This document shows, piece after piece, positions 14,548 to 62,344 of a DNA stretch of 64,000 nucleotides (the stretch's first letter is position 1; every line of letters starts with the position of its first letter). The stretch lies in the sequence record OK272470.1, one strand, 5' to 3'. The notes beneath the pieces were generated by a model. It was not told where the DNA came from and did not search any database. It was given only the letters and a program-made list of their open reading frames with translations. The position numbers were made by a program, and so were the translations under genes. This stretch comes from Escherichia phage JLBYU50.

Positions 14548-16320
14548 TTAATAAGAACCATCAGGAATATTCTCTGGGTTACTTGTGTATTGATCGTAAT
14601 CGTGAAGTGTAGCTGTTTTAATCTCATAGAAGAAACTACCTGCTGCACCAGTCTCTGAGAACTCACGGTTCTTTAGAATGTAGCAATATGTGCGGTTACG
14701 TTCCATAGGATCTTCAGCTTGTTTATCACGCTCCAGCGCAATTGTGATACCAGCACCTTTAGCAAGGAAGCTACTACCCATTGCATCATCTTCTACAATA
14801 TGTTCATTACTATTGTTAGAAGACTTTTTAACGTGTGAAATTACAACAATGGTAATTGCGTACTCTTTCATAATGCGTTTGAGCCACGTCGCAAGTTCCT
14901 CTTGTTGTGACACGTCCATACCAGAAAGCAAGTCAGAATAAGGGTCGATAACAAGAATGGTTACTCCGAAATAAATAATCATTTCCAGAACCTTCTCTTT
15001 AATCACATCTACGTTAGCTCCACGATCATCACAAACATAGAAACGTGGTGTTCCATCTTCTCGTTCGTAAAAATCACGAATCTTTTCTTCATTATCTTTT
15101 AAAATCTTTTCCTTCTCTTCTTTCGTTTTACGGTGAAGAGGGATATGCAAGAATGAAGACAGTAAGTTACGAGAATACTTCTTATACGTTGCCTCCAAAG
15201 ATAAAATACCAAGAGTATGTTCTGGGTGTGCAAGAATAATGTGCTTCGTAATCTCGTTAACCAACAGTGTTTTACCGATACTTGTTTTTGCAAGTATAAC
15301 AGTAATTTCTTCTTCTACCAAGCCTCCACCTAACATATTAGAAGCAACACGCATGAATGGAGGAAGGGTGATCATTTTAGCTTCCAGGCATTCCAAGGCT
15401 GCTTCATACAGTACGTTAGAAGCGTAAACACCAGCAGGTGTGTACAGTTTAGCTTTGAAAAAGCGATCAATAAAATGATCAATTTTTCCTTCTACTAGTG
15501 CCTGGTTAGGATCTTTAACATCAGTTAGTTCCATCACGTAAACTTTATTACGTGGTAAGATTTTAACACATTTCTCAACTGCTGCACGTCCAGCGTCATC
15601 ATTGTCCATACATAGAACAATCTTTTTAAATTGGTCTAAGAATTTATAACGATGTTGAAGCTGCTTATGCAGAGATGTTTCGCCACAAGTACCAGATACT
15701 ACAGCAGGAACAGGATATTTACCACCCTTGTTATAATCTTTTAGCATCTGTGTTGCAGCCAGCATATCGTGTTCACCACCAACGATTAGAATAGTACCGC
15801 TGTGGTTACGATATTTAAACTCCCCAAAAAGATCACAATCCTTTCCTGTTTCACCGATAGGATGTGAGAAATCTTTTGGATCGATACGTTGTTTATACCC
15901 CGCAATATTGTAATCTTTAGTTGTAGGGTATAGTGTTGAAATTACTTCGCCAGTAGCTTCATCGTACATATAACGTACACCGAAAGGCTTAGAGATATCT
16001 TCACGAATACCGCGATAACCTTTTGGATTAGTTCCAGTGCTGGCTTTTAGTTTATCATGTACTTCTGGATTAAACTCACTACCCAAGATATCCTCCTCTT
16101 CAATTTCTTCGCCGTGTGCATTTAACCATTTTTGATCAGGGATAGTAAAGCCACAAGAAAAACAATGTGCGCCTCGATGGTCTTCATCGGCATCTAAGCC
16201 ATATACCATCAAATTGTTTTGTGATCGATCACGCCCTCCTTTCATACAACGAGGACACCCAGTATGTCCTTCTTGACTTAGATCAATGTTATACCCATAT
16301 TTATTTACAACATAAGACAC
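14548..16320 (-). CDS. Bifunctional DNA primase / replicative helicase (T7 gp4-like)
   Basis: 590 aa. N-terminal Zn-ribbon (CPRC...CFSC), central TOPRIM-like region (MDNDDAG), C-terminal DnaB-like helicase with Walker A (AKTSIGKT) and Walker B-like (LVIDPYSDL). Confidence 0.85.
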   Translation of the reverse strand: MSYVVNKYGYNIDLSQEGHTGCPRCMKGGRDRSQNNLMVYGLDADEDHRGAHCFSCGFTIPDQKWLNAHGEEIEEEDILGSEFNPEVHDKLKASTGTNPKGYRGIREDISKPFGVRYMYDEATGEVISTLYPTTKDYNIAGYKQRIDPKDFSHPIGETGKDCDLFGEFKYRNHSGTILIVGGEHDMLAATQMLKDYNKGGKYPVPAVVSGTCGETSLHKQLQHRYKFLDQFKKIVLCMDNDDAGRAAVEKCVKILPRNKVYVMELTDVKDPNQALVEGKIDHFIDRFFKAKLYTPAGVYASNVLYEAALECLEAKMITLPPFMRVASNMLGGGLVEEEITVILAKTSIGKTLLVNEITKHIILAHPEHTLGILSLEATYKKYSRNLLSSFLHIPLHRKTKEEKEKILKDNEEKIRDFYEREDGTPRFYVCDDRGANVDVIKEKVLEMIIYFGVTILVIDPYSDLLSGMDVSQQEELATWLKRIMKEYAITIVVISHVKKSSNNSNEHIVEDDAMGSSFLAKGAGITIALERDKQAEDPMERNRTYCYILKNREFSETGAAGSFFYEIKTATLHDYDQYTSNPENIPDGSY

Positions 16321-18532: not shown

Positions 18533-19205
18533 ATTTTTGAGCCTCCTCATAAGAGATAAAAGTTTTACCATTGCGAAGATCCTCCAGTGATTGTTTATAT
18601 TGTTCCCAGTTTACACCAATCCCCTGTTCTTTCTCTTCTTTTGACAGATTCGCAAAAGGTAAAGGATTATCTCCAAACACATCGTCAGGATGGATAAACG
18701 CCATAATTCGAATAGGACATGGTACGCCGTGAATACCTCGATTCAAACCTGCCAGTGGAACACGCTGAATCCACTCTGCATCCTCATATCCATAACCGTG
18801 AGTGTATGAGCGGAAATAGCCAGCTTTCTCAATAACTGCACGGGAATACATACCAAACTGGCACATGCCTAGCTCCCAAATAACCACTTCTCCTTCAATA
18901 CCTTTTACTTTATCTTTAAAATATTCAGGCATACCAAAGAAATCCCAACCGTTTTCCTTCGCCTGTTTTACAAAGTATGTTTCCCAACCTGGTACAACCG
19001 GATAGCAATCATCATCAAAAATAAACCAGTAGTCATACCCTTCATCATAAAACTTTTTCATCAGTTCATTACGGGCATATGCAACACCTTTTCGTTCACG
19101 ATCATACTGTACAACAAAAGTAGCATTAGGATCAGTTACAAGATAATCTTTAAGAGGACGCTTACCTACAGTAATAACACCAACACCAATTTTTGTATTT
19201 TCCAA
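18519..19205 (-). CDS. Glycosyltransferase family 2-like protein (GT-A fold)
   Basis: 228 aa. N-terminal GVGVITVGKR nucleotide-binding-like strand and DxD-type motif (WFIFDDDCYP). Confidence 0.5.
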   Translation of the reverse strand: MENTKIGVGVITVGKRPLKDYLVTDPNATFVVQYDRERKGVAYARNELMKKFYDEGYDYWFIFDDDCYPVVPGWETYFVKQAKENGWDFFGMPEYFKDKVKGIEGEVVIWELGMCQFGMYSRAVIEKAGYFRSYTHGYGYEDAEWIQRVPLAGLNRGIHGVPCPIRIMAFIHPDDVFGDNPLPFANLSKEEKEQGIGVNWEQYKQSLEDLRNGKTFISYEEAQKYGKS

Positions 19206-19214
19206 AATAACTCC

Positions 19215-19778
19215 TTAAATAATTTTATTCATGTCTTGACAATGTAAAAGGTGTGAAACAGCTTTTCTAGGATCATCATTACCTAAACGGTATGTGTGAA
19301 ATAAATATAACCCACGTAGTAAACCTAGCCTTTTATTGTTAGCGTGCAATGCTTTAGAGAAAATTATATCAAACTGTATTGATCTTTCCTCAAAAGGAAT
19401 TTCATTCCACAGACTCTTACGAAAGAGAAGAAAGAATCCTGCTAAGATAGCATCTGTAGGTACTTCCTCTATTGAGTTTCCCCATTCTAGATGTGCTCTT
19501 TTTGCAATCTCAATGTGGTGTAATATATTCGGATCTTCACTTCTTTCATTATTAAATAATTGATATGTTGATCCCAATCTGTTACAAGATGCACCAAGAA
19601 CATCAAAATCAGGATTTGAACGGACTATTGATTCCAGCCAAGCAGGTTGTTCTGGAAGAAGAAACATTGTATCAATGTCTCTTAGGCAAATCCAACTATC
19701 TTCTGGTAAGACACTTATTGTGTCATTGATACCTTTTCCAATATCTCCAGAAAGATAGGGAGTTATGTGAAATATCAT
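19215..19778 (-). CDS. Hypothetical protein, possible fourth glycosyltransferase-like gene
   Basis: 187 aa in the same operon as the GT genes. Weak DxD-like motif (CLRDIDTMF). Assignment tentative. Confidence 0.35.
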   Translation of the reverse strand: MIFHITPYLSGDIGKGINDTISVLPEDSWICLRDIDTMFLLPEQPAWLESIVRSNPDFDVLGASCNRLGSTYQLFNNERSEDPNILHHIEIAKRAHLEWGNSIEEVPTDAILAGFFLLFRKSLWNEIPFEERSIQFDIIFSKALHANNKRLGLLRGLYLFHTYRLGNDDPRKAVSHLLHCQDMNKII

Positions 19779-19835
19779 ACTCCCTCCGTATTATTACTTT
19801 AGCATTTTTAGACTAAAAAGTCCAAATGGTTTTAC

Positions 19836-20030
19836 CTATTGATTACGTTTTGCGAGTTCCATTTGGATAGCTAAACTGTGATCTCGTGCTTCCATATACT
19901 CTTTATATGTTTCATTAAGATGATCACGACAAACATCACGCAGTTTAATCAGTTTATCTGTAGGGATACCACTAAGATCATCCCAAGATTTTACAACTTC
20001 ACCAGTATCATTGATCCCAATGGTTTTCAT
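19836..20030 (-). CDS. Hypothetical small protein
   Basis: 64 aa ORF. No motif recognised. Confidence 0.35.
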   Translation of the reverse strand: MKTIGINDTGEVVKSWDDLSGIPTDKLIKLRDVCRDHLNETYKEYMEARDHSLAIQMELAKRNQ

Positions 20031-20238
20031 CTACAACCTCCTTAATTGCTACAGCACAGTTTTTGCAGATACACTGCCCTTTACCTTTAGAAATCTGGAT
20101 GTAAGGTTCATTTTCATTTTCGCCCTTACGTGAGTCATATATTACAGAATTGAAGCACACAACGCAAATATTTTTTAATATTGTATACTTATCAACTTTC
20201 TTTTTTGTTTTAAAGTTAACTTCAATAACATCAGCCAT
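20008..20238 (-). CDS. Small Zn-ribbon protein (start uncertain)
   Basis: Two CxxC pairs (CVVCFN...CICKNC). Start placed at internal ATG forming an ATGA overlap with the upstream stop; the longer form to 20286 is possible. Confidence 0.35.
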   Translation of the reverse strand: MADVIEVNFKTKKKVDKYTILKNICVVCFNSVIYDSRKGENENEPYIQISKGKGQCICKNCAVAIKEVVDENHWDQ

Positions 20239-20516
20239 CAGTGTAACACTCCCAGTATGTTGCTTTGTGACATAACCATAGAACATTCAACATTATCGTG
20301 ACTACGTGAAAAACGTTCCCAAACATCTTCATCGACTCGTAAAGCTATACAAGGATAGACGTTATCATTGATCATTTCAATTGAATAAACATCTACATTG
20401 TCTTCGTCTTCGATGAACATCATTGCAAACTGTTCTAAATGTTTCCTAATGTAATGTACATCCTCTTCTGTAAGACCAATAACAAGATAACTTGCAACGA
20501 TAACGCCCTCTTTCAT
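20238..20516 (-). CDS. Hypothetical protein
   Basis: 92 aa acidic ORF. No motif recognised. Confidence 0.4.
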   Translation of the reverse strand: MKEGVIVASYLVIGLTEEDVHYIRKHLEQFAMMFIEDEDNVDVYSIEMINDNVYPCIALRVDEDVWERFSRSHDNVECSMVMSQSNILGVLH

Positions 20517-20526
20517 CTATATCTCC

Positions 20527-21036
20527 TTAGCGATAGAATTGATGTTCTTTGTAGCGGTACACTAGAACCATATCTTTTTCCCAGTGTGCTCTTATTGTAG
20601 ATTTTTTAAAGTATAATGCTCCTTTTGTAATATCTAATGCAATTCGTAATTCTGGAAAATGCGTATCGAGATAAAGTAGACGTTCTGCTATAGCCTTAGC
20701 TTCCTTCCACTTATCACGTTCCATAACGTTGAATGTCTTTGTGTAAGAGAATTGTCCTTTTTGAAACAAAACTTCTTTTATAGTATCAGGGAAATATGAA
20801 TCTCTAGCCCTATTCAATACTACATTACCAACAGCAGACATACCGCGCTTTCCTTGATTACGACTTTCTGCATAGATTGCACAAGCTAATAGATTTTCTT
20901 TACTATCACGCTTTGTACACTTGTGAACTACTTTAGCAGTTTTTACGTTTGCAGCTTCGGCTTGCGCCACAACAGGTGTAAATGTAAAAGCAGTTAAGGA
21001 TAGTAACGCAATTGCGACAAAGGTTTTTATTGACAA
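20527..21036 (-). CDS. Secreted cell-wall hydrolase, SleB-like (Hydrolase_2 family)
   Basis: 169 aa. N-terminal signal peptide (MSIKTFVAIALLSLTAFTFTPVVAQA). Motif ACAIYAESRNQGKRGMSAVGNVVLNRA resembles the SleB/CwlJ catalytic domain. Confidence 0.6.
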   Translation of the reverse strand: MSIKTFVAIALLSLTAFTFTPVVAQAEAANVKTAKVVHKCTKRDSKENLLACAIYAESRNQGKRGMSAVGNVVLNRARDSYFPDTIKEVLFQKGQFSYTKTFNVMERDKWKEAKAIAERLLYLDTHFPELRIALDITKGALYFKKSTIRAHWEKDMVLVYRYKEHQFYR

Positions 21037-21128
21037 ACTTGCCTCCTATTTTGTTAAACGAACTTTTATTGTAACACAGAAGAGGCTGTTTTGCAAGTGG
21101 AGGGGGATTATCCCCCTCTTAGACTCTG

Positions 21129-21731
21129 TTAGATATTGTAAACCTTTGTATGAGTTACTACACCATCTTCTACAAAATCAACACGTTCTTGATCCGTAAC
21201 TAGTGCAGACAATACTTTAAATTTAATTTTTACACGTTCAAAAGCTGGTTGACCATCTTTAAGATAATTATGTTCAGTTGTCACTGTCTTGTTTACAAAA
21301 TCAACTTTTGCTTTACCGTTTTCGCGTAAATGGAATGTTTTTCCTGCTTTATACACAATTTCAACATTGCCTTCGAGAGTAATTCCTTCAAAAAGTTCAC
21401 CCTCTTCTTCATTTTCTTCACTTTTGAACAGACGACGAAACTCTTCCATATCAAGATAAACAACATCTTCAGAATAACTATCAGTAAGGTATGTCTTACC
21501 ATCCATTAACCCGAAATATTGCCAGATCGCAGAATAAACATCACTGGTTGATCCAAGGGTTTCTCTGAGTTTAGTTCCACGGATTACTTCATAAACTTCA
21601 AAATTGAAACCAGACTGCAAAGCATTAAACAGTACATCACTAACTTCTAAAGCATAATCTTCATTGTTGTCAATATCCACAAGAAAATTACCGCTACGAA
21701 TAAGTTTTTGACCTTCTAAAGTAATACCCAT
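21129..21731 (-). CDS. Hypothetical protein
   Basis: 200 aa ORF upstream of the SleB-like gene in the Ter-like cluster. No motif recognised. Confidence 0.45.
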   Translation of the reverse strand: MGITLEGQKLIRSGNFLVDIDNNEDYALEVSDVLFNALQSGFNFEVYEVIRGTKLRETLGSTSDVYSAIWQYFGLMDGKTYLTDSYSEDVVYLDMEEFRRLFKSEENEEEGELFEGITLEGNVEIVYKAGKTFHLRENGKAKVDFVNKTVTTEHNYLKDGQPAFERVKIKFKVLSALVTDQERVDFVEDGVVTHTKVYNI

Positions 21732-21783
21732 TGTTTTCTCCTCTTTTATTTAAAATATGCGCCCCGAAGGGCGCTATGATTTA

Positions 21784-22380
21784 TTACTCGAACCAATCGT
21801 CGCCAGCGCCAAACGCTTTAACTACATCGTAAATGTCAAGCCCAGCTTTACCTACACCATATGCTTTCAGTTTCCATTCGTTATCTTCTCGCACCAGGGA
21901 GGCAACGTGGCAAATGGTATTACCTGCAAGTTCTGGAGCCAAGAAGTCAAAATCCAGCAGTTCAACGTTACGTTCATCATCGAAGATTTTAAGGAAACCT
22001 TCGGTAGCGTGACCAAGGCGTTTCTTACCCGTTTCGTCATCAATAGTAATTACGAATGCAATTTCCTGTGCTTCAGCAGAGATATTATCCAGTGTAACAT
22101 CAATCTGCTCCATTTGTCCTACACCATCACGAACATCTTCACCTGCAAAAGTAGAACGTTCAGGATCAAATTTCTGCGCGTAGCACACCAGGTGACGAGG
22201 AGACAACAGTTCCGGCAGACCAGATGCATTGTGTCGGCAAATCAGAGCACTAACATCCAGATCCAGTTTTTCGTTAGATTTCCAAGAGAATTCCAGACGA
22301 ATGCGTTTCAGTGCTGGTGCAATCTTTTTCAGAGAAACTTTTTCGCTAGAACCTTTTTTCAGGGAAATTTTCTGAGTCAT
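21784..22380 (-). CDS. terD: TerD-family protein (tellurite-resistance TerD/TerE/TerZ-like)
   Basis: 198 aa. N-terminal duplicated ISLKKG...VSLKK, IRLEFSWKS and LDLDVSALI blocks match the TerD fold signature. Acidic Ca-binding-like patch (TIDDETGKK). Confidence 0.7.
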   Translation of the reverse strand: MTQKISLKKGSSEKVSLKKIAPALKRIRLEFSWKSNEKLDLDVSALICRHNASGLPELLSPRHLVCYAQKFDPERSTFAGEDVRDGVGQMEQIDVTLDNISAEAQEIAFVITIDDETGKKRLGHATEGFLKIFDDERNVELLDFDFLAPELAGNTICHVASLVREDNEWKLKAYGVGKAGLDIYDVVKAFGAGDDWFE

Positions 22381-22452
22381 AATTTATTATCTCCTTTGTT
22401 GTTAATTTACGTTGTCTATTTTACTAATCTTTTCTACAAAGTCAAGCGTTTT

Positions 22453-23247
22453 TTACGCTTTTGCTCCAAATTTTTTAACCCACTCACCAAACTCTTCGGA
22501 TAACAGTTTATCGTAAAGTTCTTCATCAGACAAGGACAAATCTGCAATACCGATAAAATCAACATTATCGTATTCTTTTGCCAAGTCTTTCAGGAATTTA
22601 AAGTTTGCATTACCTACACCAACCATAAACCAGTAAACAGGTGTATTGCGGTGTTTGTTCAGTAAGCTACGTACTGCTGAAGTATCCATGTTCTCCCCGT
22701 CAGTTTGGAAGAAAATCATTGCAGGAGTACGATCAACTTGTGCATCAGTATCTACAACCTGTTCTACAACAGTACGTGTTACTTCTACAAGTTCTTTTTT
22801 ACCAGTTAGTTTAGCAAGGAAACCTTTAGCTGGAACTTCTTCATACTCAACGACTTCGCGTGTAATATTTTTCATAGGTACACTACCGAAGTATGTATCA
22901 TAAATGTCTTGCATTACTGGAGCATAAGCTGTACCACCATTGATGCAAACATTAGACATACAAGAGCCGACATAATCATCATATACATCAGCCGTTGCAG
23001 GAGGCAGTTCAAAAGAAGAACTATTGAAAGCCCACATGTCAATCTGCGCATTATCATCAAACTTCATACCAAACGGCAGCAGCTTACCTACAAAATCACT
23101 AACAGTGCCATCACGATATAGCTCACACATACTACCCGAAATATCTAAGGCGCTACCGACACGAAGAACAACATCGTTAATCTTTTTCTTACGCAGAGAT
23201 ACAGTAAGAGTTTCTTGACGTTTTTTAAGACTGATTTTATTGGACAT
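22453..23247 (-). CDS. von Willebrand factor A (vWA) domain protein, TerY-like
   Basis: 264 aa. N-terminal ISLKK motif then MIDAS-like DxSxS (VGSALDISGSM) and vWA beta-strands (MIFFQTDGEN; VYWFMVGVG). Confidence 0.6.
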   Translation of the reverse strand: MSNKISLKKRQETLTVSLRKKKINDVVLRVGSALDISGSMCELYRDGTVSDFVGKLLPFGMKFDDNAQIDMWAFNSSSFELPPATADVYDDYVGSCMSNVCINGGTAYAPVMQDIYDTYFGSVPMKNITREVVEYEEVPAKGFLAKLTGKKELVEVTRTVVEQVVDTDAQVDRTPAMIFFQTDGENMDTSAVRSLLNKHRNTPVYWFMVGVGNANFKFLKDLAKEYDNVDFIGIADLSLSDEELYDKLLSEEFGEWVKKFGAKA

Positions 23248-23248
23248 A

Positions 23249-23518
23249 TTATTTCTCCTTTCTGACTGTAATGTTAGTAACTTCTAAATCCACTTCTACC
23301 ACTTCTGTATCATATAAAATACAGTTAAGTTGACCTCTTTGTGAACCGTTCAGACACATTGCTTGGTTTGTATTAACCTTAATAAACACTAAGTTTATGA
23401 ACGTATCTAAACCAGAATCTTGATAGGCAACATAATATACAAATGTATCACCTGTGTCAAGTTCTCCAAAACATTTAGGTTCATCTGATTTGTCGTCTTT
23501 GATATTAAATTTAAGCAC
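23249..23518 (-). CDS. Hypothetical protein
   Basis: 89 aa ORF in the Ter-like cluster. Confidence 0.4.
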   Translation of the reverse strand: MLKFNIKDDKSDEPKCFGELDTGDTFVYYVAYQDSGLDTFINLVFIKVNTNQAMCLNGSQRGQLNCILYDTEVVEVDLEVTNITVRKEK

Positions 23519-24074
23519 TGTCTTCTCCTTTACCTGCTCTCAAGCCTAAATAGAAAGCCTCTCTGGTGATTTTTTGCAACTCGTTTAAAGAGATAGTTAC
23601 AACTAAATCATCTTCAATTTCTAGCTTTGAGTCTTCTTCTGTCTCAATGCAAGTATTATGCACTTTGTGGTAAGGATTGTCAACACGTTTAAATTTATTA
23701 TTTTCAGTGCTGAAGAAGCAATCTGGATCTTCTTCTCCATCACCCCAACCCTGGTTAGGGTCTTCTTCAGATCTTTCTGTTGGGATCTCACCTGTAAAGT
23801 GCTCTTCTAATACCAGAGCAATCCCATCTCCAAGATCGGAAGAGAACATCAAATTACAAACTTCTTCCCAAGGCATAGACCACTTAAATCTTTTACGATT
23901 GCCATGTTTATCTTCTTCGTTAGAGAAAACACTACCATAGCTATCATAATTGCCATACATCTCTTCAACAACTTTACCACCTTTCAAAAGAAATAGGTAG
24001 CAAGGAGAGCCATCGAAAGAGGTAGAAAGAGCAGCATTACCAGACTCTTTGCACAAGAAACTAAAACACCCCAT
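23511..24074 (-). CDS. Hypothetical acidic protein
   Basis: 187 aa, Cys/acidic-rich. No motif recognised. Confidence 0.45.
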   Translation of the reverse strand: MGCFSFLCKESGNAALSTSFDGSPCYLFLLKGGKVVEEMYGNYDSYGSVFSNEEDKHGNRKRFKWSMPWEEVCNLMFSSDLGDGIALVLEEHFTGEIPTERSEEDPNQGWGDGEEDPDCFFSTENNKFKRVDNPYHKVHNTCIETEEDSKLEIEDDLVVTISLNELQKITREAFYLGLRAGKGEDSA

Positions 24075-24274
24075 TATACACCAACCTTAAGATCAATTAT
24101 AGCCAAAGTGGTTTCAGAGTGTGTTTGCTCGTCTACAGGTGCAGTCATGTGATAATACAAAAAATCTTCGGCATCATACCAATCTGACTCTTGACCTTGT
24201 TTCCAACCATCAATGAAAGCATCTTCCATAATTGTTTGTAACTCTTCACGAGTTAAGTGAATATCTTTACTCAT
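24074..24274 (-). CDS. Hypothetical small acidic protein
   Basis: 66 aa ORF, ATGA-type coupling to neighbours. Confidence 0.35.
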   Translation of the reverse strand: MSKDIHLTREELQTIMEDAFIDGWKQGQESDWYDAEDFLYYHMTAPVDEQTHSETTLAIIDLKVGV

Positions 24275-24507
24275 TACACATTCTCCTCTTTTACCAATTC
24301 CATCGTTGAACTATCAAAACCATCTTTAGAAGAATAGGTATAGACAGAACGTAGTTCTCGCAGGACAGTGAATACATTGGGATCATCTAACCAAGCATCC
24401 TGGAGGAGAACATAACGATCTTCATTGTCGTACTGGACAGCAATCATAGAACCAGACAGTTTGTAAATTTTAATATTCATAATATATTTCTCCTTAAAGT
24501 AGACCAC
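24274..24507 (-). CDS. Hypothetical small protein (start uncertain)
   Basis: 77 aa ORF overlapping the TelA-like gene 3' end; an internal start is possible. Confidence 0.35.
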   Translation of the reverse strand: MVYFKEKYIMNIKIYKLSGSMIAVQYDNEDRYVLLQDAWLDDPNVFTVLRELRSVYTYSSKDGFDSSTMELVKEENV

Positions 24508-25597
24508 GTTTAACAGTTTGAATCATACCATCTTCAAGAGATTGCACTTCTTGAATGTAATCAATACGCGCAGCACGGGCTTCAGTGTTGATTCGGTTAG
24601 TTTCTTCCAACATTTTAACTAAGTTTTCTTGATCGCGACGTAATGTCTCAATATCCAATACTTGACGATTAGCAAGTTGTGTAGCTTCAATTTGGTTTTG
24701 TGCCGCCAGATCACTACCCATTGCAATAGCAGCATTAAATTCATTCAGCACATTGTTCTGTGTATCGGCTGCTTTCTTCTGGCGTAGACTTTCAATATAC
24801 ATAGAAAAGTTTGCAGAGTAAGCAGGGATAACATTATTCACAATATTACGGGCTGATCGCATCAAACTTGCAGATACTTTCTGCATACTTTGTACACGTG
24901 GCCCCATCTGAACACACAGTAAGCGTAGGGCTTTCAGGTCTGCAATACGAATTTCAAGCAGATCCATAGTATCACGAGTACGTTGACGCTCTTCTACCTC
25001 ATTTTCAGGCAGTGTATTAAGGCGAACTTCTTCTTTTTCATACGTAGCTGTTAGAAGCTCTATATCTCTGTTTAAGCTAAGAGCATATTTGGCAATAGCC
25101 TCTTCTAAACGTTGCAGATATCGTAAAGAATCTTCTTCTTTTTTCAAGTCTGTTTGGAGTGTCTTTACCAAACCTTCAATACGATTATTGATGGTGTCAA
25201 ATTCTCCAAACAAATCTTCTTTCATACCTAATACTTTCTTAACTAGTTTACCTAAGCCTTTAGATTGCTTAATAGAGTTAGGATCAAGTTGCTTTGCTTG
25301 CTTAATAAGTGCAGTTAAACGTTCACTCATTTCATCCCCCTGAGATGAACGCTGGTGTTTAAGCACTTCAGCATTAAGGTTACGAAGAGTAAGTCCTGCA
25401 TCAGCACCAACTTGTTCAATCTCTTCACGAGACATTGGAGGCAGCATTTGTACAGGTCGTGCAACAGCAGGGGCATATACAGGGCTTGCATCCATAGCAC
25501 TTGGAGCAAATAAAGACTTACTTTTTTCTGTTGTTGCCGTGAATACACTCATTTCAGACGGTTTGCTTTTTACGGCACTGATAAAAGGACTGGACAT
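24494..25597 (-). CDS. telA: TelA-like toxic-anion-resistance family protein
   Basis: 367 aa, largely coiled-coil. C-terminal block QVLDIETLRRDQENLVKMLEE...AARIDYIQE resembles the conserved TelA/KlaB region. Confidence 0.55.
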   Translation of the reverse strand: MSSPFISAVKSKPSEMSVFTATTEKSKSLFAPSAMDASPVYAPAVARPVQMLPPMSREEIEQVGADAGLTLRNLNAEVLKHQRSSQGDEMSERLTALIKQAKQLDPNSIKQSKGLGKLVKKVLGMKEDLFGEFDTINNRIEGLVKTLQTDLKKEEDSLRYLQRLEEAIAKYALSLNRDIELLTATYEKEEVRLNTLPENEVEERQRTRDTMDLLEIRIADLKALRLLCVQMGPRVQSMQKVSASLMRSARNIVNNVIPAYSANFSMYIESLRQKKAADTQNNVLNEFNAAIAMGSDLAAQNQIEATQLANRQVLDIETLRRDQENLVKMLEETNRINTEARAARIDYIQEVQSLEDGMIQTVKRGLL

Positions 25598-25665
25598 TCA
25601 ATTTCCTCCATATTCTTTAGTAGATGGTGATACCTCTGTACCACCATCATAACACAAATTAAGTA

Positions 25666-26517
25666 TTAAACAAACATATCTAAATAATTTGTAGTAATAA
25701 ACGCCCCATCTGCTTCCAGATTAACATAACCAGTAGCATTAGTGGTTAAGAAATCCAGATCGAAGGACTCTTTAACACCCCGTACCTCAACACGAGAGAT
25801 ATCGAATACAGGTAGTGTAACAGCCTCTTCGTGCAATACCGTACCTTTGTAGGTTGCCTTAATGATAAACTTGATATTACCCGTTCCAGCATCATACAAA
25901 ACACTTTCAAACCCTTTGAGAGTATATTTATCACCAGAAGTGAAGTGCAAAGTTGCTTTGTTTACAGTACGTTTTTTACGAGGAGTTCCTTTCACACGTT
26001 TATGATCACTACGTTTTTTGTACTTAGGAATGAATACAAACGATACATTCTGAAGAAAGGTATCAACATCAAGGATTTTAATATCCTCTGTTGCAGCAAA
26101 TTTTGAAGTCGTTGCATCAAAATGCTTTTCCCTGCGATCATACATAAAGATATCAAACCGATCTTCTAAATCAAACAAATTATGTATTTTAATTTCAGAA
26201 TGCTTGCGCATTGCAGCAACCTTGAACTCTTCAAAACGTGGGTGTTCTACAAGTTCTTCAAGTTTTACACCAAAGACAGTATATTGCTTCGGAGTTTTTT
26301 CTGGTGTTGGCATTACAGAAGCATAATCCCCGATTGCGCTCTTAAAGCAAAATTGTTCTTGACCTGTATTTTTACCAACGAATTTACAGTATTCATCATT
26401 GTGCATACTTTCCTTAGTAGTACCAACAAACTCAAAACCATCTTTATTCTTCTCAAGAATTTCTTGATTAAAGATCCAACCTTCCAGGCGATACACTTTA
26501 CCAACTTCTAGTTTCAT
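25666..26517 (-). CDS. Hypothetical protein
   Basis: 283 aa with a basic patch (KKRSDHKRVKGTPRKKRT). No motif recognised. Confidence 0.45.
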   Translation of the reverse strand: MKLEVGKVYRLEGWIFNQEILEKNKDGFEFVGTTKESMHNDEYCKFVGKNTGQEQFCFKSAIGDYASVMPTPEKTPKQYTVFGVKLEELVEHPRFEEFKVAAMRKHSEIKIHNLFDLEDRFDIFMYDRREKHFDATTSKFAATEDIKILDVDTFLQNVSFVFIPKYKKRSDHKRVKGTPRKKRTVNKATLHFTSGDKYTLKGFESVLYDAGTGNIKFIIKATYKGTVLHEEAVTLPVFDISRVEVRGVKESFDLDFLTTNATGYVNLEADGAFITTNYLDMFV

Positions 26518-26552
26518 CTGTTTCTCCTTCTTATTTAATCTGTATTAAATTA

Positions 26553-27143
26553 TTAACGACGACGTGAGCTACTAAAACTACGTTTCGACGAAGAATAACT
26601 TTTCGAAGACTTACTATAAGAGCTAATAGGACTTGAGTAAGACTTACGAGCAGAGTAATCACTATTCACTTTTGTTGTTGATGGGCGTGAATACGTTTGT
26701 ACACTTTGCTGCTTAATTGTGTTTTGTTTAGTGGTTGTATATGTATTTCCTTGTTTATCATAAAAACTATGCTTTTGTGTTGTATATGCTTTGCTATTAG
26801 TTGTAGGAGCAGCGTTGTTATTGATAATTGTTGTATTGCTACCGCCATCTCTATAACCACCACCGCCACTATTACCACTCAACATATGACCAAGAAGCAT
26901 ACCTGTAGCAAACTCACCTACACCAGAAGAACCACTGCCGCCTCCTTGCACAACAACTGTTGAAGGTTGTGCAGGTGCTGCTTGAACAACTTGAGGTGCA
27001 GGTTGATTTACATATTGTTCATCTACCATCTGATTTGGTGTTTGTTGGTAACGTTGATTTTGTACATTTTCAGAATCATCACAACCTACCAGCAATACAC
27101 TACCTAAAACAACTGCAACAATAAAAGATTTAATGTTTTTCAT
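26553..27143 (-). CDS. Lipoprotein with Gly-rich and Ser/Tyr-rich low-complexity regions
   Basis: Start at MKNIKSF after RBS gagggt. Signal peptide with lipobox (LLVGC). Gly-zipper-like segment and Ser-rich basic C-terminus. Confidence 0.5.
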   Translation of the reverse strand: MKNIKSFIVAVVLGSVLLVGCDDSENVQNQRYQQTPNQMVDEQYVNQPAPQVVQAAPAQPSTVVVQGGGSGSSGVGEFATGMLLGHMLSGNSGGGGYRDGGSNTTIINNNAAPTTNSKAYTTQKHSFYDKQGNTYTTTKQNTIKQQSVQTYSRPSTTKVNSDYSARKSYSSPISSYSKSSKSYSSSKRSFSSSRRR

Positions 27144-27336
27144 TTGTAACCCTCTCATTTAAAGTCTCAACACAATTTTTAAAATCCCTAGAGAAACAAT
27201 ACATCTGTTCTCCGTTCCTGTTGATAGTAATTGTATGGTTATCAATATATGTTGTCAAGATAAAAATCAAACAAAACAACCCTAGAGCAAAACAAATATT
27301 TTCAAACAGAATCCAAAGAACACGTAAAACCACCAT
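27130..27336 (-). CDS. Small membrane protein
   Basis: 68 aa with one strongly hydrophobic helix (ICFALGLFCLIFILTTYI). Confidence 0.35.
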   Translation of the reverse strand: MVVLRVLWILFENICFALGLFCLIFILTTYIDNHTITINRNGEQMYCFSRDFKNCVETLNERVTNEKH

Positions 27337-27375
27337 CAGATCACCTCAATAAAGCCCCCGAAGGGGCTTAATGAA

Positions 27376-28353
27376 TTAAGCAACAGCCTGGTCTTCTTTT
27401 TCAGGGAAGATTAAACTTGCAATAACACCCAACCCAAGAGTACCTAACACAATATACATACTGATCGTCGGATCAATGTGTGCTGGTAGGAAACTCACTT
27501 TTGCGTGCAGAGTTTCTGCAAACGGGTGATACATCAGTTTTACACCCACAAATACCAGGACTACGATAACTGCTTTCTCCAGATGAACCAAATACTTCAG
27601 TGCAACACTAAGAACAAAGAACAGAGCGCGTAAACCTAAGATTGCACAGAGCATCGAAGAGAACACCAGCAGAGGTTCTTGTGTCACTGCAATTACTGCT
27701 GGAACAGAGTCTACTGCAAAGATTACGTCAACCATTTCCATTACAAACACACAAACCAGAGCCGGAGTTGCTACACGAACACCATTTTTGATTGTGAAGA
27801 ACTTCTCACCATCCATCTGATCAGATACAGGGAACAGCTTACGAACAATGCGAGTAGCCCAGTGTTTAGAGTAATCAACTTCTGCATCATTATCTCCAGC
27901 GAATACCATTTTAGCCGCACAGAAAAGGATGACAGCACCGAAGAAGATATTAACATACCAGCCCAAACTCAACAAGTAAGTACCTACTGCTACAAACACA
28001 CCTCGGAAGACAATCGCACCTGCAATACCCCAAAGTAGAATCTTGTGTTGCAAGTGTGTGCTTTTAATACCAAAACTTGCGAATACTGCCACAAATACTA
28101 CTAAGTTATCTACAGAAAGAGATTTCTCCAACACATACCCACTCAAGAACAAACTCGCAAAATCAGCACCGTGTTGGAAGTATACAAAACCATAGTAGGC
28201 TAATGATACCCCAATCCAGAAAATTGACCAACCAACTGCCGATTTAAATGAAATCTCTTTGTTTTCTCTGTGTCCAAAGAAATCAATACAAATCGACAAC
28301 ACTAAAATACCCACTAAAACAACCACATCAATAATTGGGAAACCCAGTTGCAT
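27376..28353 (-). CDS. terC: TerC-family integral membrane protein
   Basis: 325 aa polytopic membrane protein. Signature motif EKSLSVDN and several further TM helices. Terminator-like hairpin upstream at 28372-28390. Confidence 0.8.
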   Translation of the reverse strand: MQLGFPIIDVVVLVGILVLSICIDFFGHRENKEISFKSAVGWSIFWIGVSLAYYGFVYFQHGADFASLFLSGYVLEKSLSVDNLVVFVAVFASFGIKSTHLQHKILLWGIAGAIVFRGVFVAVGTYLLSLGWYVNIFFGAVILFCAAKMVFAGDNDAEVDYSKHWATRIVRKLFPVSDQMDGEKFFTIKNGVRVATPALVCVFVMEMVDVIFAVDSVPAVIAVTQEPLLVFSSMLCAILGLRALFFVLSVALKYLVHLEKAVIVVLVFVGVKLMYHPFAETLHAKVSFLPAHIDPTISMYIVLGTLGLGVIASLIFPEKEDQAVA

Positions 28354-28692: not shown

Positions 28693-28899
28693 TTATTTGT
28701 TAGATTGAAAGATACCACGGAGTACCGCAAGAATGAACGTCACACAGACTACACTCCAAAACGTTACAGGAACATGATGCCAGTCTAAGCCGATAATGTC
28801 AATCATATAATTGTATGCTAAAAGCAGTAGCCAACTAGGGATTAACACAATCAAGAACACAACAATAAAACAACCTAATACTGCTAAAACACCTGCCAT
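28693..28899 (-). CDS. Small membrane protein (two predicted TM helices)
   Basis: 68 aa with two hydrophobic segments; holin-like topology cannot be excluded. Confidence 0.4.
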   Translation of the reverse strand: MAGVLAVLGCFIVVFLIVLIPSWLLLLAYNYMIDIIGLDWHHVPVTFWSVVCVTFILAVLRGIFQSNK

Positions 28900-28908
28900 A
28901 CTTTCTCC

Positions 28909-29286
28909 TTATTTCAGTTTGTAAACAATTACATTTAAACCTTTGTTTACTAGAGTTTCTTCGATCATAAGTTTTACAATATTCCAAGAACCTCCAGCCA
29001 AACCACAACCAAGCATTGGTAAACCTACAATTTTACCGCCTGAAGATACAACATCGTCTCCCATACTATCTAGCGCATTGTAGATAGCTTCATAATTCAG
29101 GTCACGCTTACCTTCCTCACGACGACTATAACCATATTGTCCATATAAATTATAAATTGTCAAATTGTTTTCTGTATATTTGGTAAACGTACCTAATTTT
29201 TTATAATCACCACGTTTAGTGGCACAATCTGCTTTAAACGCACCAGGCCACTTGCTTTTAATTTTTGGTGCAATACCACTACCCAT
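28909..29286 (-). CDS. Hypothetical protein with weak macro-domain-like Gly-rich motifs
   Basis: 125 aa. MGSGIAPKI and GCGLAGGSW loosely resemble the phosphate-binding loops of macro (ADP-ribose-binding) domains. Shorter than a canonical macro domain; tentative. Confidence 0.3.
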   Translation of the reverse strand: MGSGIAPKIKSKWPGAFKADCATKRGDYKKLGTFTKYTENNLTIYNLYGQYGYSRREEGKRDLNYEAIYNALDSMGDDVVSSGGKIVGLPMLGCGLAGGSWNIVKLMIEETLVNKGLNVIVYKLK

Positions 29287-30232
29287 AGTGCAAAAACAGT
29301 TGAAGATGCTCTTCTCCTGACTTATGGTCTACAGCTACAACATAACGATTACCGCTAAACAAACCTTGTGCTGTCATACCGTCAATATCGGTATCTGCCG
29401 AAACATCTCCTGTACGATCTACACCGTTAACTTTCAGGAGTTTAACTTCTTTTGCAGCATAGCGGTGTTCAGTAATACTGATACCCATTAATGCAAGTGC
29501 ATCAGAGAATTTGTCATTAGGGTAACGGTTAAGTTCTTCTACTAGTGACTGAACAATATCAAAGTTCAAGTCCACGGAAAGATTATAAAGCGTTTCAAAA
29601 TCTGGTAAAAAGGCTTTGTTCTCCAGATTTTTAGCCAGATAGTCATCCATAGTAGCTTTAGGTAGTTTCTTATAGCTAAAGCTGTAGAAAATACGGCTAG
29701 GACGATTACGCAAAAATTCTGATACATAACCATCATTTTTAGTCAATACAAACAGCTTGTCATAGCCACCAACACCATCCAGCAGGGTAAGCAAACCATC
29801 CTGTGCATCTTTTTCAGCATACAGTTTATCAAATTCATCGATCATAATCATCACAGGTTGTGTGATTTTAGACATAAAATTGATAAAGCCTTCACCATTA
29901 AAAGCACTACCGATAGAAATAGTAGGAATACCCATTTCACGAAGAGCAGAAGATAGCATTTTAGCTTGCAAAGTTTTACCGCTACCCTTCGTACCCTCAA
30001 GGAGAACACCTGTGTTTTTACCTTTGCGGCTAAGGAACGTCTTGATAATACGTTCTGATTTATCATCAGTATCACCGTATGTTACTGAAGGGACTTCCAT
30101 ATCGTTTTTAGGATACAGGAAGAACTCACCACTTTGAGTAACACCTACACCAAAAGTTCCTGCTGGAATTTCTTCAATATCTGTACCAGACTTCTGACGC
30201 AGGAAGATTTGATTGCCGAATACTGTAAACAT
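29279..30232 (-). CDS. AAA-family ATPase (paralog A)
   Basis: 317 aa. Walker A GTKGSGKT, Walker B MIMIDEFDK, classical-AAA second region LLTLLDG and NRPSR. About 45% identical by eye to 44210-45337. Confidence 0.7.
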   Translation of the reverse strand: MFTVFGNQIFLRQKSGTDIEEIPAGTFGVGVTQSGEFFLYPKNDMEVPSVTYGDTDDKSERIIKTFLSRKGKNTGVLLEGTKGSGKTLQAKMLSSALREMGIPTISIGSAFNGEGFINFMSKITQPVMIMIDEFDKLYAEKDAQDGLLTLLDGVGGYDKLFVLTKNDGYVSEFLRNRPSRIFYSFSYKKLPKATMDDYLAKNLENKAFLPDFETLYNLSVDLNFDIVQSLVEELNRYPNDKFSDALALMGISITEHRYAAKEVKLLKVNGVDRTGDVSADTDIDGMTAQGLFSGNRYVVAVDHKSGEEHLQLFLHYG

Positions 30233-30252
30233 AGTTTTCTCCTCTATTTAAT

Positions 30253-30723
30253 TTAGTCAGATTCCCAAATGTTGTCTTTCTTAACCCACATTCGTTGATT
30301 ATCTGAACCTCTATAACGTTTCGTTGTTGGTTGATTCATATCATACTTACCATCTATCACTATGTCAACCAGTTTTTTAATTTTTTCTGGAATTTCTTCA
30401 AAAAGATATCCTGTATATAAGACAATATCTTTTTTGTTTCCAAAACAATCTCTTACCTTTTCAAGAACATACTCTACAGTATCAATGTTCTCTTTGTCAA
30501 GAGGTTCACCACCTAAAACTGTTAATCCTTTAATGAAAGGTCGAGATAAATCTTTCAAGATAAGATCTAATGTTTCAGTAGTGAACTCTTGTCCGTAGTT
30601 ATACGACCAGGCTTTCTGGTTAAAGCAGCCACGGCAACCGTGGCTACAACCGCTCACCCACAAAGAGCATCTTACACCGTCACCGTTGAGCATGTCAACA
30701 GGTTCATATCCGGCGTAATTCAA
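30253..30723 (-). CDS. nrdG: Anaerobic ribonucleotide reductase activating protein (radical SAM)
   Basis: 156 aa. Radical-SAM CxxxCxxC cluster (CSHGCRGC). Directly downstream of the NrdD-like gene with a 4-nt overlap. Confidence 0.85.
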   Translation of the reverse strand: MNYAGYEPVDMLNGDGVRCSLWVSGCSHGCRGCFNQKAWSYNYGQEFTTETLDLILKDLSRPFIKGLTVLGGEPLDKENIDTVEYVLEKVRDCFGNKKDIVLYTGYLFEEIPEKIKKLVDIVIDGKYDMNQPTTKRYRGSDNQRMWVKKDNIWESD

Positions 30724-61884: not shown

Positions 61885-62343
61885 ATGCAAGAGGTTAAAC
61901 ATTATCCACATGGTCGTAGTTTTGTAGCTGTATGGCATGTTCCTGCTCGTAATGAACTGTTTTGCGCATCTTTTCATTACAAAGATGGACAATATTTCAC
62001 CTATGACGAGACGATGGATGATTTTATCCCAGAGTGCGATCATGGGTATACACCAATGTTCTTTAAACGTATGAAAGCTCGTTTCTTCGTTACAGATGTT
62101 GATGGTGAACCTACTTGGCATATCGAAGAAGATTGGCAAGATTCTGTGGATATTAAAGAAGCCCCAGAATGGGCTACATTACTGGTACACGTCAAAACCC
62201 CTACTCTTGACGTTATGGCGTGGGTTAATCATGATGATACCCATTACCAATACATAAATGGTAGCACAGAGATTTCTGGTGAGATTATTGGTCGTTGGAA
62301 GCCTACGAATCAGGTTGCTATTGTCGGGTATAAGACAGTATAA
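61885..62343 (+). CDS. Hypothetical protein
   Basis: Start at MQEVKHY after RBS aaggag. Confidence 0.45.
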   Translation: MQEVKHYPHGRSFVAVWHVPARNELFCASFHYKDGQYFTYDETMDDFIPECDHGYTPMFFKRMKARFFVTDVDGEPTWHIEEDWQDSVDIKEAPEWATLLVHVKTPTLDVMAWVNHDDTHYQYINGSTEISGEIIGRWKPTNQVAIVGYKTV

Positions 62344-62344
62344 T

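Follow-up and report, generated by a model that had tools for sequence, protein, structure and literature searches.

An exported SleB-like murein hydrolase of Escherichia phage JLBYU50, probably accessory to a separate lysozyme

The gene and its predicted fold

The window analysed here is a stretch of 64,000 nucleotides from Escherichia phage JLBYU50 (record OK272470.1). A sequence-only reading of this DNA placed an open reading frame at 20527-21036 and proposed it as the gene of a secreted endolysin; the frame lies on the minus strand with exactly these ends, and its product is 169 amino acids long. The coding sequence is 100% identical at the nucleotide level to gene gp170 of Escherichia phage phi92 (genus Justusliebigvirus; protein accession YP_009012502), and it is called gp170 below. 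Genes of this type are already known as annotations: the Justusliebigvirus and Phapecoctavirus orthologs are labelled 'endolysin', 'putative cell wall hydrolase' or 'sleB'. The TTG start codon is spaced 5 nt from an AGGAGG Shine-Dalgarno sequence, and a dN/dS of 0.17 against a Phapecoctavirus ortholog indicates purifying selection. Its coding features are as follows.

20527-21036, minus strand: coding sequence of a SleB/CwlJ-family (Hydrolase_2) murein hydrolase, with a TTG start and a TAA stop at 20527-20529
20959-21036, minus strand: predicted Sec signal peptide (codons 1-26), with an MSIK n-region, a TFVAIALLSLTAFTFT h-region and a PVVAQA c-region
20530-20958, minus strand: predicted mature protein (residues 27-169; 16.8 kDa, pI 9.7), a basic linker and a SleB-like domain
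20917-20919 and 20881-20883, minus strand: codons of a conserved Cys pair, C40 and C52, in the predicted mature protein
20866-20868, minus strand: codon of the predicted catalytic Glu57, from alignment with the Glu of SleB 'YGESRGE'; invariant in all orthologs examined

Over residues 61-168 the product scores 72.1 bits with Pfam Hydrolase_2 (PF07486; cut-off 27, E=6.5e-20), and it also matches PHROG 938, 'endolysin' (1.5e-20); in the PDB, phmmer finds nothing but the catalytic domain of SleB (4F55, 4FET). The SleB equivalog model TIGR02869 aligns through its C-terminal domain alone and scores 51.9 bits where 236.5 are required, and a Pfam search finds no PG_binding domain in gp170. An AlphaFold2 model has a mean pLDDT of 80.9, with values above 90 across most of residues 41-169 and below 50 for residues 1-32. 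When this model is submitted to Foldseek, SleB (4FET, 4F55) comes out on top with a probability of 1.00 and a target-normalised TM score of 0.71-0.76, and the first match after the SleB structures has an E-value of only 4.

In the phmmer alignment, Glu57 of gp170 ('AIYAESR') pairs with the Glu of SleB 'AVYGESRGE'. No substitution of this residue, which lies within a Y-x-E-x-R motif of the N-terminal helix, occurs among 21 close homologs or 9 distant sequences, and 12 further residues are invariant from SleB through the phage orthologs. Domain match, predicted fold and invariant Glu57 together bear out the assignment to the SleB/CwlJ type that was made from the motif. SleB itself is a lytic transglycosylase for which the catalytic Glu is essential (PMC12331253), and gp170 is most likely one too, using Glu57. 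That it might instead be catalytically dead, or a wall-binding protein with a purely structural role, is extremely improbable in view of the invariance of Glu57 and of the core residues common to SleB, of a dN/dS of 0.12 over the mature part, and of the toxicity in E. coli expression reported for the ortholog of Pectobacterium phage CB7, a protein with a predicted signal peptide of its own (PMC7344957).

An export signal retained among orthologs

The N-terminus of gp170, MSIK-TFVAIALLSLTAFTFT-PVVAQA|EAA, is laid out as the n-, h- and c-regions of a signal peptide and has the sequence features of type I, with a Pro at -4 to -6 and an AxA. Three small-x-small cleavage sites are possible, after A24, A26 and A28. 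Across 20 close relatives (in an alignment read by eye) the c-region varies and a small-x-small site is always present. More generally, an N-terminal export signal occurs in every ortholog examined and is retained down to about 35% identity: signal peptides are found in phi92-like phages, Phapecoctavirus, Vequintavirus nomo, the PVP-SE1-like phage R7, Mydovirus KpS8, A7_1 and two T5-like phages, and the PAK_P1 ortholog has an N-terminal membrane anchor in which a cleavage site is not obvious. The ortholog signal peptides are short and classical, ending in VVA|A, VLA|K, TYA|K, SHA|T or AQA|K. Such conservation agrees with the earlier description of a cleavable-looking signal peptide that targets the protein to the periplasm, and cleavage by signal peptidase I is probable.

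Survival of small-x-small sites, through sequence turnover, after the helix-breaking Pro21 argues against the alternative that the N-terminus is an uncleaved SAR anchor, which would hold an inactive enzyme on the inner membrane until depolarisation released it. Several ortholog h-regions comprise only 10-13 residues and are therefore too short to span a membrane; this is the case for the short classical signal peptides of the nomo, KpS8, A7_1 and T5-like orthologs. No pinholin gene adjoins gp170, and its hydrophobic segment, unlike known SAR domains, is not Gly/Ala-rich. An SAR anchor is thus rather unlikely, even though the span of roughly 19-20 residues contains conserved Ser/Thr (T15 and T18 are invariant), the PAK_P1 homolog has its anchor, and the summed insertion energy lies near the values for the SAR domains of P1 Lyz and phage 21 R: a simple insertion scale gives 0.93 kcal/mol for the 19-residue hydrophobic span of gp170, with SAR domains scoring 0.46-0.78 and classical signal peptides 2.4-8 kcal/mol. 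On the preferred reading, that of a cleaved signal, the precursor would be exported via Sec by its N-terminal signal peptide and cut by signal peptidase I after A24, A26 or A28, yielding a basic 16.8-kDa periplasmic enzyme that a C40-C52 disulfide may stabilise.

Upstream elements and the Ter-like neighbourhood

The region upstream of gp170 contains the following elements.

21041-21047, minus strand: AGGAGGC, the Shine-Dalgarno sequence, unchanged across five diverged genomes
21068-21096, minus strand: sigma-70-type promoter-like site (TTGCAA, 17 nt, TGtTACAAT with an extended -10)
21080-21086, minus strand: GCCTCTT, a candidate anti-Shine-Dalgarno element in the promoter spacer, complementary to the Shine-Dalgarno sequence
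21100-21118, minus strand: G+C-rich hairpin GAGGGGGATAATCCCCCTC, directly 5' of the promoter, with no T-run

Promoter (including its architecture), GCCTCT element and Shine-Dalgarno sequence are kept in five diverged genomes whose proteins are 61-98% identical, and an equivalent of the hairpin is present in four of the five. The TTG start recurs in all five Stephanstirmvirinae-like genes, and three of four Vequintavirinae genes start with TTG or GTG. Promoter-like sites as such are not more frequent in the region than in shuffled sequence (61 versus 48.7 +/- 8.2), and searching the whole window against Rfam yields no family above threshold. Because both sides of the putative anti-Shine-Dalgarno helix are invariant, it shows no covariation. 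The GCCTC element was not found in the promoter-like spacers of the structural-gene intergenic regions inspected in this phage group. The promoter type itself, TTGnCA-17-TGnTAnnnT, also precedes structural genes of the group; dating gp170 expression by promoter type was therefore rejected, since timing cannot be inferred from a type that structural genes share. A search of the literature for transcription timing in these phage genera gave nothing usable.

That the TTG never varies, that the gene has a promoter to itself and that the candidate anti-Shine-Dalgarno element is conserved all suggest that gp170 is tightly controlled. In the mechanism that these elements suggest, the dose of gp170 would be limited by the weak, invariant TTG, the upstream hairpin and the private sigma-70-type promoter. 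GCCTCTT, which lies within the promoter spacer, would pair with the Shine-Dalgarno sequence solely on read-through transcripts and so render these translationally silent; translation would then be limited to transcripts from gp170's own promoter.

These elements also bear on the proposal, made from sequence alone, that lysis is functionally linked to the Ter-like membrane proteins. In every Stephanstirmvirinae-like genome or contig examined that reaches upstream of the gene, down to 61% protein identity, TerD is followed, with or without gp171, by the SleB-like gene. This conserved order is what commends the idea that gp170 works within the Ter-like module (TerD, vWA-TerF, TelA and TerC), for instance by opening the wall for an envelope complex, with gp180, gp181 and gp184 as partners. 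Yet a terminator-like hairpin lies 3' of TerD, the G+C-rich hairpin and private promoter set gp170 apart from the genes upstream of it, and the adjacency to TerD is confined to Stephanstirmvirinae-like genomes: the Vequintavirinae, T5-like and Pakpunavirus orthologs have no Ter neighbours, being found upstream of rIIA/rIIB in nomo (Vequintavirus) and the PVP-SE1-like R7, and amid replication and recombination genes in T5-like phages. A role within the Ter-like module is thus very improbable, and the proposed link between lysis and Ter finds no support.

Nor do the lysis partners suggested earlier fare better, even though the small transmembrane proteins at 27130-27336 and 28693-28899 (gp181 and gp184, both of 68 amino acids) and the lipoprotein at 26553-27143 (gp180) are present in the window as described. 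Asp at positions +2 and +3 is the inner-membrane retention signal for E. coli lipoproteins. The gp180 lipobox, LVGC, is followed by Asp-Asp (+2 and +3), so that gp180 is predicted to stay in the inner membrane and hence not to be an outer-membrane o-spanin; gp181 has about 40 residues beyond its transmembrane segment, unlike an i-spanin with its long coiled-coil periplasmic domain. Moreover, gp180, gp181 and gp184 hold their positions beside TerC in both Stephanstirmvirinae genera compared, including Phapecoctavirus, and were not found in the sampled neighbourhoods of Vequintavirinae orthologs. The neighbours of gp170 itself (gp171 and gp169-gp167) have no hydrophobic or transmembrane segments, and no holin or spanin gene clusters with it.

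Lysis genes elsewhere in the lineage

The T4 E, lambda R, P22 gp19, T7 and T5 lysins have no match among the open reading frames of the window, which corresponds to positions 78252-146096 plus 1-3331 of the relative VivaForever. The lysozyme and spanin genes of VivaForever fall outside that span. A lysozyme that lacks an export signal and shares 52% identity with T4 E (phi92 gp061), with its Glu/Asp/Thr triad intact and a Pfam Phage_lysozyme domain, is present in 55 of 55 Justusliebigvirus records of the phage collection, which take in the 20 DNA matches closest to the window. In VivaForever this gene (62012-62512) lies within a nucleotide-metabolism block, about 66 kb from the SleB-like gene; it stands free, and this T4 E homolog, not a tail lysozyme, proves to be the second lysin. 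A tail or baseplate lysozyme was considered as a candidate and set aside, inasmuch as Pfam finds no lysozyme domain in ten VivaForever structural-module proteins. In these phages the T4 E-type lysozyme often carries the mistaken label 'baseplate hub subunit and tail lysozyme', or is called a 'hypothetical protein'.

An overlapped i-spanin/o-spanin pair of the Rz/Rz1 type adjoins the large terminase gene of VivaForever (30113-30779), about 98 kb from the SleB-like gene. The i-spanin is 143 amino acids long and has PHROG 4297 ('Rz-like spanin', 1.9e-40) as its match, and the o-spanin lipobox reads MMTGC-AS; the phi92/phAPEC8 spanin family is included in a published spanin census, and two lytic proteins have been reported for BME3 and likewise for a Phapecoctavirus. 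When T4 holin T and lambda S are compared with all VivaForever open reading frames, no match appears. The sequence-only reading was correct that the window contains no canonical lysis cassette. The search for another endolysin that it called for finds a T4 E-like lysozyme and spanins in relatives, dispersed rather than in one cassette, and so half of what it named as evidence against its proposal. JLBYU50 would be expected, from these relatives, to carry both at loci outside the window.

In rV5-like, PVP-SE1-like, T5-like and Pakpunavirus phages, too, an exported SleB-like protein occurs together with a separate lysin. The endolysin of T5-like phages is an L-Ala-D-Glu peptidase, distinct from the SleB-like protein; in the one region of the IrmaTschudi record that was searched, a T5-like endolysin was not found. 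Lineages with a SleB-like protein have rV5 gp89, PVP-SE1gp146 and Pae87 as their described lysins. The last of these was also tried as a solved Hydrolase_2 phage lysin and rejected, as its family is Muramidase (PF11860); for the Hydrolase_2 protein of PAK_P1, SleB is the sole PDB match.

Hence gp170 is not the phage's only lysin and is probably not its main one. It departs from a canonical cytoplasmic endolysin in its export signal, in standing outside any holin/spanin cluster, and in the presence of a second muralytic enzyme in relatives. The candidate endolysin of the earlier reading therefore stands as an exported SleB/CwlJ-type hydrolase and not as the occupant of a missing endolysin's place. 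Because close relatives carry a T4-type lysozyme and spanins elsewhere, gp170 is probably a second, accessory hydrolase; the account judged likeliest here, with moderate confidence, is that of an accessory, holin-independent, Sec-exported periplasmic murein hydrolase under tight expression. The gp061 lysozyme, being cytoplasmic, would need a holin and would act alongside the Rz/Rz1-type spanin pair, while gp170 might weaken or remodel the sacculus ahead of lysis, or back up the lysozyme.

A rival to this account is that gp170 is the principal endolysin, delivered early by Sec and set free once the membrane potential has been collapsed by a holin or pinholin, with the lysozyme being redundant or otherwise employed. 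The label 'endolysin' in PHROG 938 and in many GenBank records favours it, as do the R7 and A7_1 orthologs, each followed immediately by a gene for a small, holin-like two-TM protein with a basic C-terminus, in the manner of a lysin-holin pair. For these two-TM proteins, neither the window nor VivaForever yields a detectable homolog, nor is homology detectable among them, gp181, gp184 and the VivaForever proteins 6520 and 76413. A principal endolysin is, moreover, hard to reconcile with the retention of an intact T4 E-type lysozyme throughout Justusliebigvirus, with the described or characterised lysin being the other protein in rV5-like, PVP-SE1-like and Pakpunavirus phages, with flanks devoid of membrane-protein genes, and with a weak TTG start, which would be odd for an enzyme required in bulk. 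This rival is accordingly considered unlikely, and the label 'endolysin' for phi92 gp170-type proteins is probably misleading.

At least four large lytic phage lineages keep both an exported SleB-like hydrolase and an endolysin, which suggests a further function in the envelope of the infected cell. It is possible, as a tentative generalisation that may well prove wrong, that Sec-exported SleB-like transglycosylases (of phi92-like, rV5/PVP-SE1-like, T5-like and Pakpunavirus phages) form a non-endolysin class devoted to dose-limited, pre-lysis remodelling of the periplasmic wall in large virulent phages of Gram-negative hosts, with anti-Shine-Dalgarno insulation in the phi92 group. If so, their roles might include lysis timing, cell enlargement or a wall change against superinfection, and in the phi92 group a spacer-hidden anti-Shine-Dalgarno element and a fixed TTG would insulate translation from read-through. 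As a small, basic, periplasm-targeted and predicted glycan-strand cutter from a family with almost no Gram-negative biochemistry, gp170 may also interest those working on enzybiotics. None of this overturns the current understanding of lysis.

Among known systems, phi92 differs in no respect: the gene is identical and the order from TerD to the glycosyltransferases is the same. The Bacillus spore cortex-lytic enzymes SleB/CwlJ (4F55, 4FET) have the catalytic-domain fold and catalytic Glu in common with gp170, which, unlike them, lacks an N-terminal PG_binding_1-type domain and has an additional helical insertion at residues 107-133; the setting differs too, as the E. coli host has neither a muramic-delta-lactam cortex nor the partner YpeB. 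The CB7_83/Vequintavirinae proteins (rV5 group, PVP-SE1 gp243, CR3_087), 33-41% identical to gp170, have the same domain, signal peptide and Cys-X11-Cys pair (which precedes the catalytic helix) and, like the gp170 lineage, occur in phages with a separate endolysin and with spanins beside the terminase gene; the difference lies in their surroundings, those of nomo and R7 being rIIA/rIIB rather than Ter genes, and some in this group being followed by the small two-TM gene that gp170 lacks. Within phi92, gp061 and gp170 are both glycan-strand-degrading (gp170 by prediction), single-domain proteins of about 17-19 kDa, but gp061 is of the GH24 type (Phage_lysozyme), has no export signal and starts with ATG. 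Finally, the Sec-exported endolysin Lys44 of Oenococcus phage fOg44, which has a cleavable signal peptide, and the SAR endolysins P1 Lyz and phage 21 R reach the wall compartment independently of a holin, as is predicted for gp170; these belong to other catalytic families and are the sole lysins known from their phages, whereas in the gp170 lineage a canonical cytoplasmic lysozyme is additionally present.

The SleB-like gene and its enzyme family

The window derives from an Escherichia phage related to phi92, in the genus Justusliebigvirus and the subfamily Stephanstirmvirinae; its positions 19000-23000 share 98.5-99.0% identity with VivaForever, phi92 and the remaining top matches, and 55 records match this interval at an identity of at least 95%. 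The gene of interest, whose coordinates the sequence-only reading had given exactly, is as follows:

20527-21036, minus strand: SleB-like ORF, 169 aa, with a TTG start 5 nt downstream of AGGAGG

This gene is already known and annotated: it is completely identical in nucleotide sequence to phi92 gp170, which RefSeq labels 'endolysin' and other records 'putative cell wall hydrolase' or 'sleB', and both the signal peptide and the two-lysin arrangement are in print for relatives. The reading favored here, which we regard as probable rather than assured, is that its product is an accessory periplasmic wall hydrolase acting beside a T4 E-type lysozyme and a spanin pair--that is, a SleB/CwlJ-family lytic transglycosylase that would be exported by the Sec pathway and then processed by signal peptidase.

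The protein matches Pfam Hydrolase_2 (PF07486; E=6.5e-20) and PHROG family 938 ('endolysin'), and its sole sequence relatives in the PDB are the Bacillus SleB catalytic domains 4F55 and 4FET. Its AlphaFold2 model (mean pLDDT 80.9; residues 1-32 alone are unstructured) retrieves SleB alone in Foldseek, with a probability of 1.00 and a target-normalised TM of 0.71-0.76. SleB acts as a lytic transglycosylase and cannot do without its catalytic glutamate (PMC12331253), and Glu57 of the phage protein (in 'AIYAESR') aligns on the Glu of SleB 'AVYGESRGE'. That the protein is inactive is scarcely credible, given that Glu57 and a further twelve residues are the same in SleB and in the T5-like, Pakpunavirus, Vequintavirinae and phi92-like proteins and that the gene is under purifying selection (dN/dS 0.17 versus Phapecoctavirus UP17). 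An orthologous relationship to spore SleB was rejected, as the SleB equivalog model scores 51.9 bits versus a cut-off of 236.5; unlike spore SleB, the phage protein lacks an N-terminal wall-binding domain.

A separate observation concerns window 20930-21020 (codons 6-35), where nucleotide identity with UP17 is 90-97%, the remaining gene and its flanks being at 60-75%; dS versus UP17 is 0.13 for codons 1-26 and 1.57 for the mature part. This island, which could reflect either RNA-level constraint or a local recombination tract, weakens when more divergent contigs are included.

Predicted export and expression signals

The predicted signal peptide and those of distant orthologs are:

Residues 1-26, minus strand: MSIK / TFVAIALLSLTAFTFT / PVVAQA, then EAANVK
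Vequintavirus nomo: MKIKIFAIILSALLSLPVVA, then AP
Mydovirus KpS8: ...SLATTPVLA, then KD
Escherichia phage A7_1: ...LSLAPGVTYA, then KE
T5-like IrmaTschudi: MKAALLLIAALTYSFNSHA, then TY
T5-like K7rec11: ...SFHAQA, then KI

Among 20 relatives of 61-98% identity, the hydrophobic core is near-invariant and the c-region is variable (VTATA, VYAG, VIGIA, IMVHA, AALA, GYS, VVEA); as read by eye from the alignment, a small-x-small site a few residues past the Pro is kept throughout. The signal peptides of the distant orthologs are short and classical, and the PAK_P1 homolog has a membrane anchor at its N-terminus; the occurrence of N-terminal export signals across orthologs thus marks export as a conserved property of these phage proteins. 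A Cys-X11-Cys pair (C40, C52) directly before the catalytic helix, which the phi92-like and Vequintavirinae proteins share, would fit an oxidising compartment. An uncleaved, SAR-type anchor is retained as a rival because a simple insertion scale gives the 19-residue span FVAIALLSLTAFTFTPVVA a SAR-like score (0.93 kcal/mol, where SAR domains score 0.46-0.78 and classical signal peptides 2.4-8). Such tethering, which is a question of topology and overlaps the other readings, is doubtful in view of the retained small-x-small sites and of the short, classical signal peptides of the distant orthologs.

The gene is preceded by a 92-nt spacer which, read on the coding strand, contains:

21100-21118, minus strand: G+C hairpin, the first element of the spacer
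21096-21068, minus strand: promoter-like site, TTGCAA, 17 nt, TGtTACAAT
21041-21047, minus strand: Shine-Dalgarno AGGAGGC, then the TTG start codon

Five genomes (proteins 61-98% identical) conserve the -35 hexamer, the extended -10, the Shine-Dalgarno, the TTG and a AAGCCTCT block, while the surrounding bases drift. This block lies inside the promoter spacer (in other relatives' loci at L009 8900-9000, L014 2986-3085, L015 4901-5000 and L016 5-104), and its GCCUCUU forms the complement of AGGAGGC, the Shine-Dalgarno, the two being paired in both single-sequence and consensus folding; the helix has no covariation support because its pairs are invariant. The block is a candidate anti-Shine-Dalgarno element that would silence read-through transcripts only: a transcript from the gene's own promoter would lack GCCUCUU, and a read-through transcript begun farther upstream would include it, so that its ribosome-binding site would be sequestered. 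No GCCTC element was found in the promoter-like spacers of structural-gene intergenic regions of the same phage, and promoter-like sites in the overall scan were not above chance.

All five Stephanstirmvirinae-like genes start with TTG, as do, with TTG or GTG, three of the four Vequintavirinae genes, and terminator hairpins directly precede several SleB-like orthologs. Together, the TTG start, the hairpins, the promoter-like site and the putative anti-Shine-Dalgarno suggest a deliberately low, insulated dose, which would suit an exported wall hydrolase and which fits the reported toxicity in E. coli of the SleB-like CB7_83 (PMC7344957). The same promoter type occurs in front of structural genes as well and is thus no guide to expression timing. 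In VivaForever, a terminator hairpin and then TTGACA-17-TGnTAnnnT stand before structural genes (for example at 15751-15865, 21697-21740, 26258-26353 and 27923-28019), as on the replication side; the sigma-70-like promoters reported genome-wide in rV5 (PMC3606486) are thus echoed in the VivaForever structural module.

Lysozyme, spanins and the Ter module

The window contains no lysis cassette, as had been stated from sequence; the genome outside it was read from near-identical relatives. VivaForever 62012-62512 (L003 12012-12512) encodes a 166-aa protein that is 52% identical to T4 lysozyme (T4 E), has the Glu/Asp/Thr catalytic triad and a Pfam Phage_lysozyme match, and lacks a signal sequence. 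It corresponds to phi92 gp061 (phi92 23603-24100), which is present at an identity of at least 95% in 55 phage records, all 20 best DNA matches to the window among them; the SleB-like protein is therefore improbable as the main secreted endolysin. Adjoining the large terminase gene of VivaForever is an overlapped spanin pair, namely an i-spanin (143 aa, N-terminal transmembrane domain, PHROG 4297) and an o-spanin (MRKHLLALCLVLALMMTGC, then AS; PHROG 1267); a spanin census includes the phi92/phAPEC8 two-component family (PMC6139136). No holin was identified for this phage group, either by comparing T4 holin T and lambda S with the VivaForever ORFs or in the literature on relatives. Genome notes on these phages name two lytic proteins, the lysozyme and the SleB-like hydrolase (PMC12210895; PMC10793346). 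The proposal of a candidate secreted endolysin thus survives as an exported SleB-type hydrolase and probably gives way, as regards the endolysin, to the separate lysozyme and spanins of the relatives; another lysis system, one of the two grounds on which the sequence-only reading would have been refuted, does exist in substance in these relatives, dispersed rather than clustered.

The labels of gp061 are inconsistent ('endolysin', 'e lysozyme murein hydrolase', 'baseplate hub subunit and tail lysozyme', 'baseplate hub', 'PhoH family protein', 'hypothetical protein'). That gp061 is a gp5-type hub protein was rejected, since a length of 166 aa and its 52% match to T4 E are those of a soluble, free-standing lysozyme.

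A Ter-type stress module occupies window 21784-28353 on the minus strand:

21784-22380, minus strand: TerD
22453-23247, minus strand: vWA-TerF
24494-25597, minus strand: TelA
27376-28353, minus strand: TerC

Lineage-specific membrane proteins flank TerC, with gp184 upstream and gp181 and the predicted inner-membrane lipoprotein gp180 downstream; all three likewise stand beside TerC in UP17. Metagenomic contigs at 61% identity also carry TerD and vWA-TerF, with TelA present in one of them, and the contigs end before TerC. Between TerD and gp171 (21759-21774) lies a perfect G+C hairpin, GCGCCCCGAAGGGCGC, that is terminator-like on both strands.

These three membrane proteins had been proposed as lysis partners. 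In E. coli, Asp at +2 keeps a lipoprotein in the inner membrane; because the lipobox LVGC of gp180 (start at 27143) is followed by Asp-Asp, gp180 is not an o-spanin. The 68-aa proteins gp181 and gp184, with one and two transmembrane segments respectively and PHROGs of unknown function, could not be related to any of the holins with which they were compared. Together with their constant place beside TerC, this speaks against the proposed partnership.

In every Stephanstirmvirinae-like genome or contig examined that reaches far enough upstream, TerD is adjacent to the SleB-like gene, even where protein identity falls to 61%, as would be expected of a Ter-module component. A functional link to the Ter module is nevertheless very unlikely, as orthologs in other lineages have different neighbours: the ortholog is directly upstream of rIIA/rIIB in nomo and in Salmonella phage R7, after RNA ligase at the record end in KpS8, and among RNase H and exonuclease genes in T5-like phages. 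The adjacency is thus lineage-specific, and in the window hairpins and a promoter-like site intervene.

Elsewhere in the window, at 29301/29302 (ORFs 28909-29286 and 29279-30232, minus strand), about 2.46 kb is absent relative to VivaForever and phi92 (VivaForever 117660-120119). Lost are phi92 gp186-gp189 (a PRTase-like protein, a hydrolase, a small protein and an HTH protein), and both the AAA ATPase gp190 and the phosphatase/macrodomain protein gp185 are truncated. The junction is contiguous in 0 of 54 matching phage records, and no meaningful microhomology occurs at the breakpoint.

SleB-like enzymes beside endolysins in other phages

In the Vequintavirinae-type phages R7 (L006 7524-7697) and A7_1 (L011 2986-3198), a small ORF (57 and 70 aa, respectively) lies directly 3' of the SleB-like gene. 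With a pair of hydrophobic segments and a C-terminus rich in Lys and Arg, each product looks like a class II holin; no relationship was detectable between the two or with any protein of the window. The annotated start of the R7 SleB-like CDS (L006 6947-7519) is upstream of a terminator hairpin; homology to KpS8 makes the TTG at about 6989 (LKIKAIIL...) the probable true start.

The two-lysin pattern recurs in other phages. The 'obvious lysin' of rV5 is gp89, a Phage_lysozyme (PMC3606486); the characterised endolysin of PVP-SE1 is gp146 (PMC3352856), and its homolog of phi92 gp170 is gp243; CB7 has both a T5-type peptidase and CB7_83 (PMC7344957); and the characterised lysin of Pakpunavirus JG004, Pae87, is a Muramidase-family protein (PF11860), and a separate Hydrolase_2 protein is found in the related PAK_P1. 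Four lineages of large lytic phages thus retain an exported SleB-like enzyme besides their endolysin.
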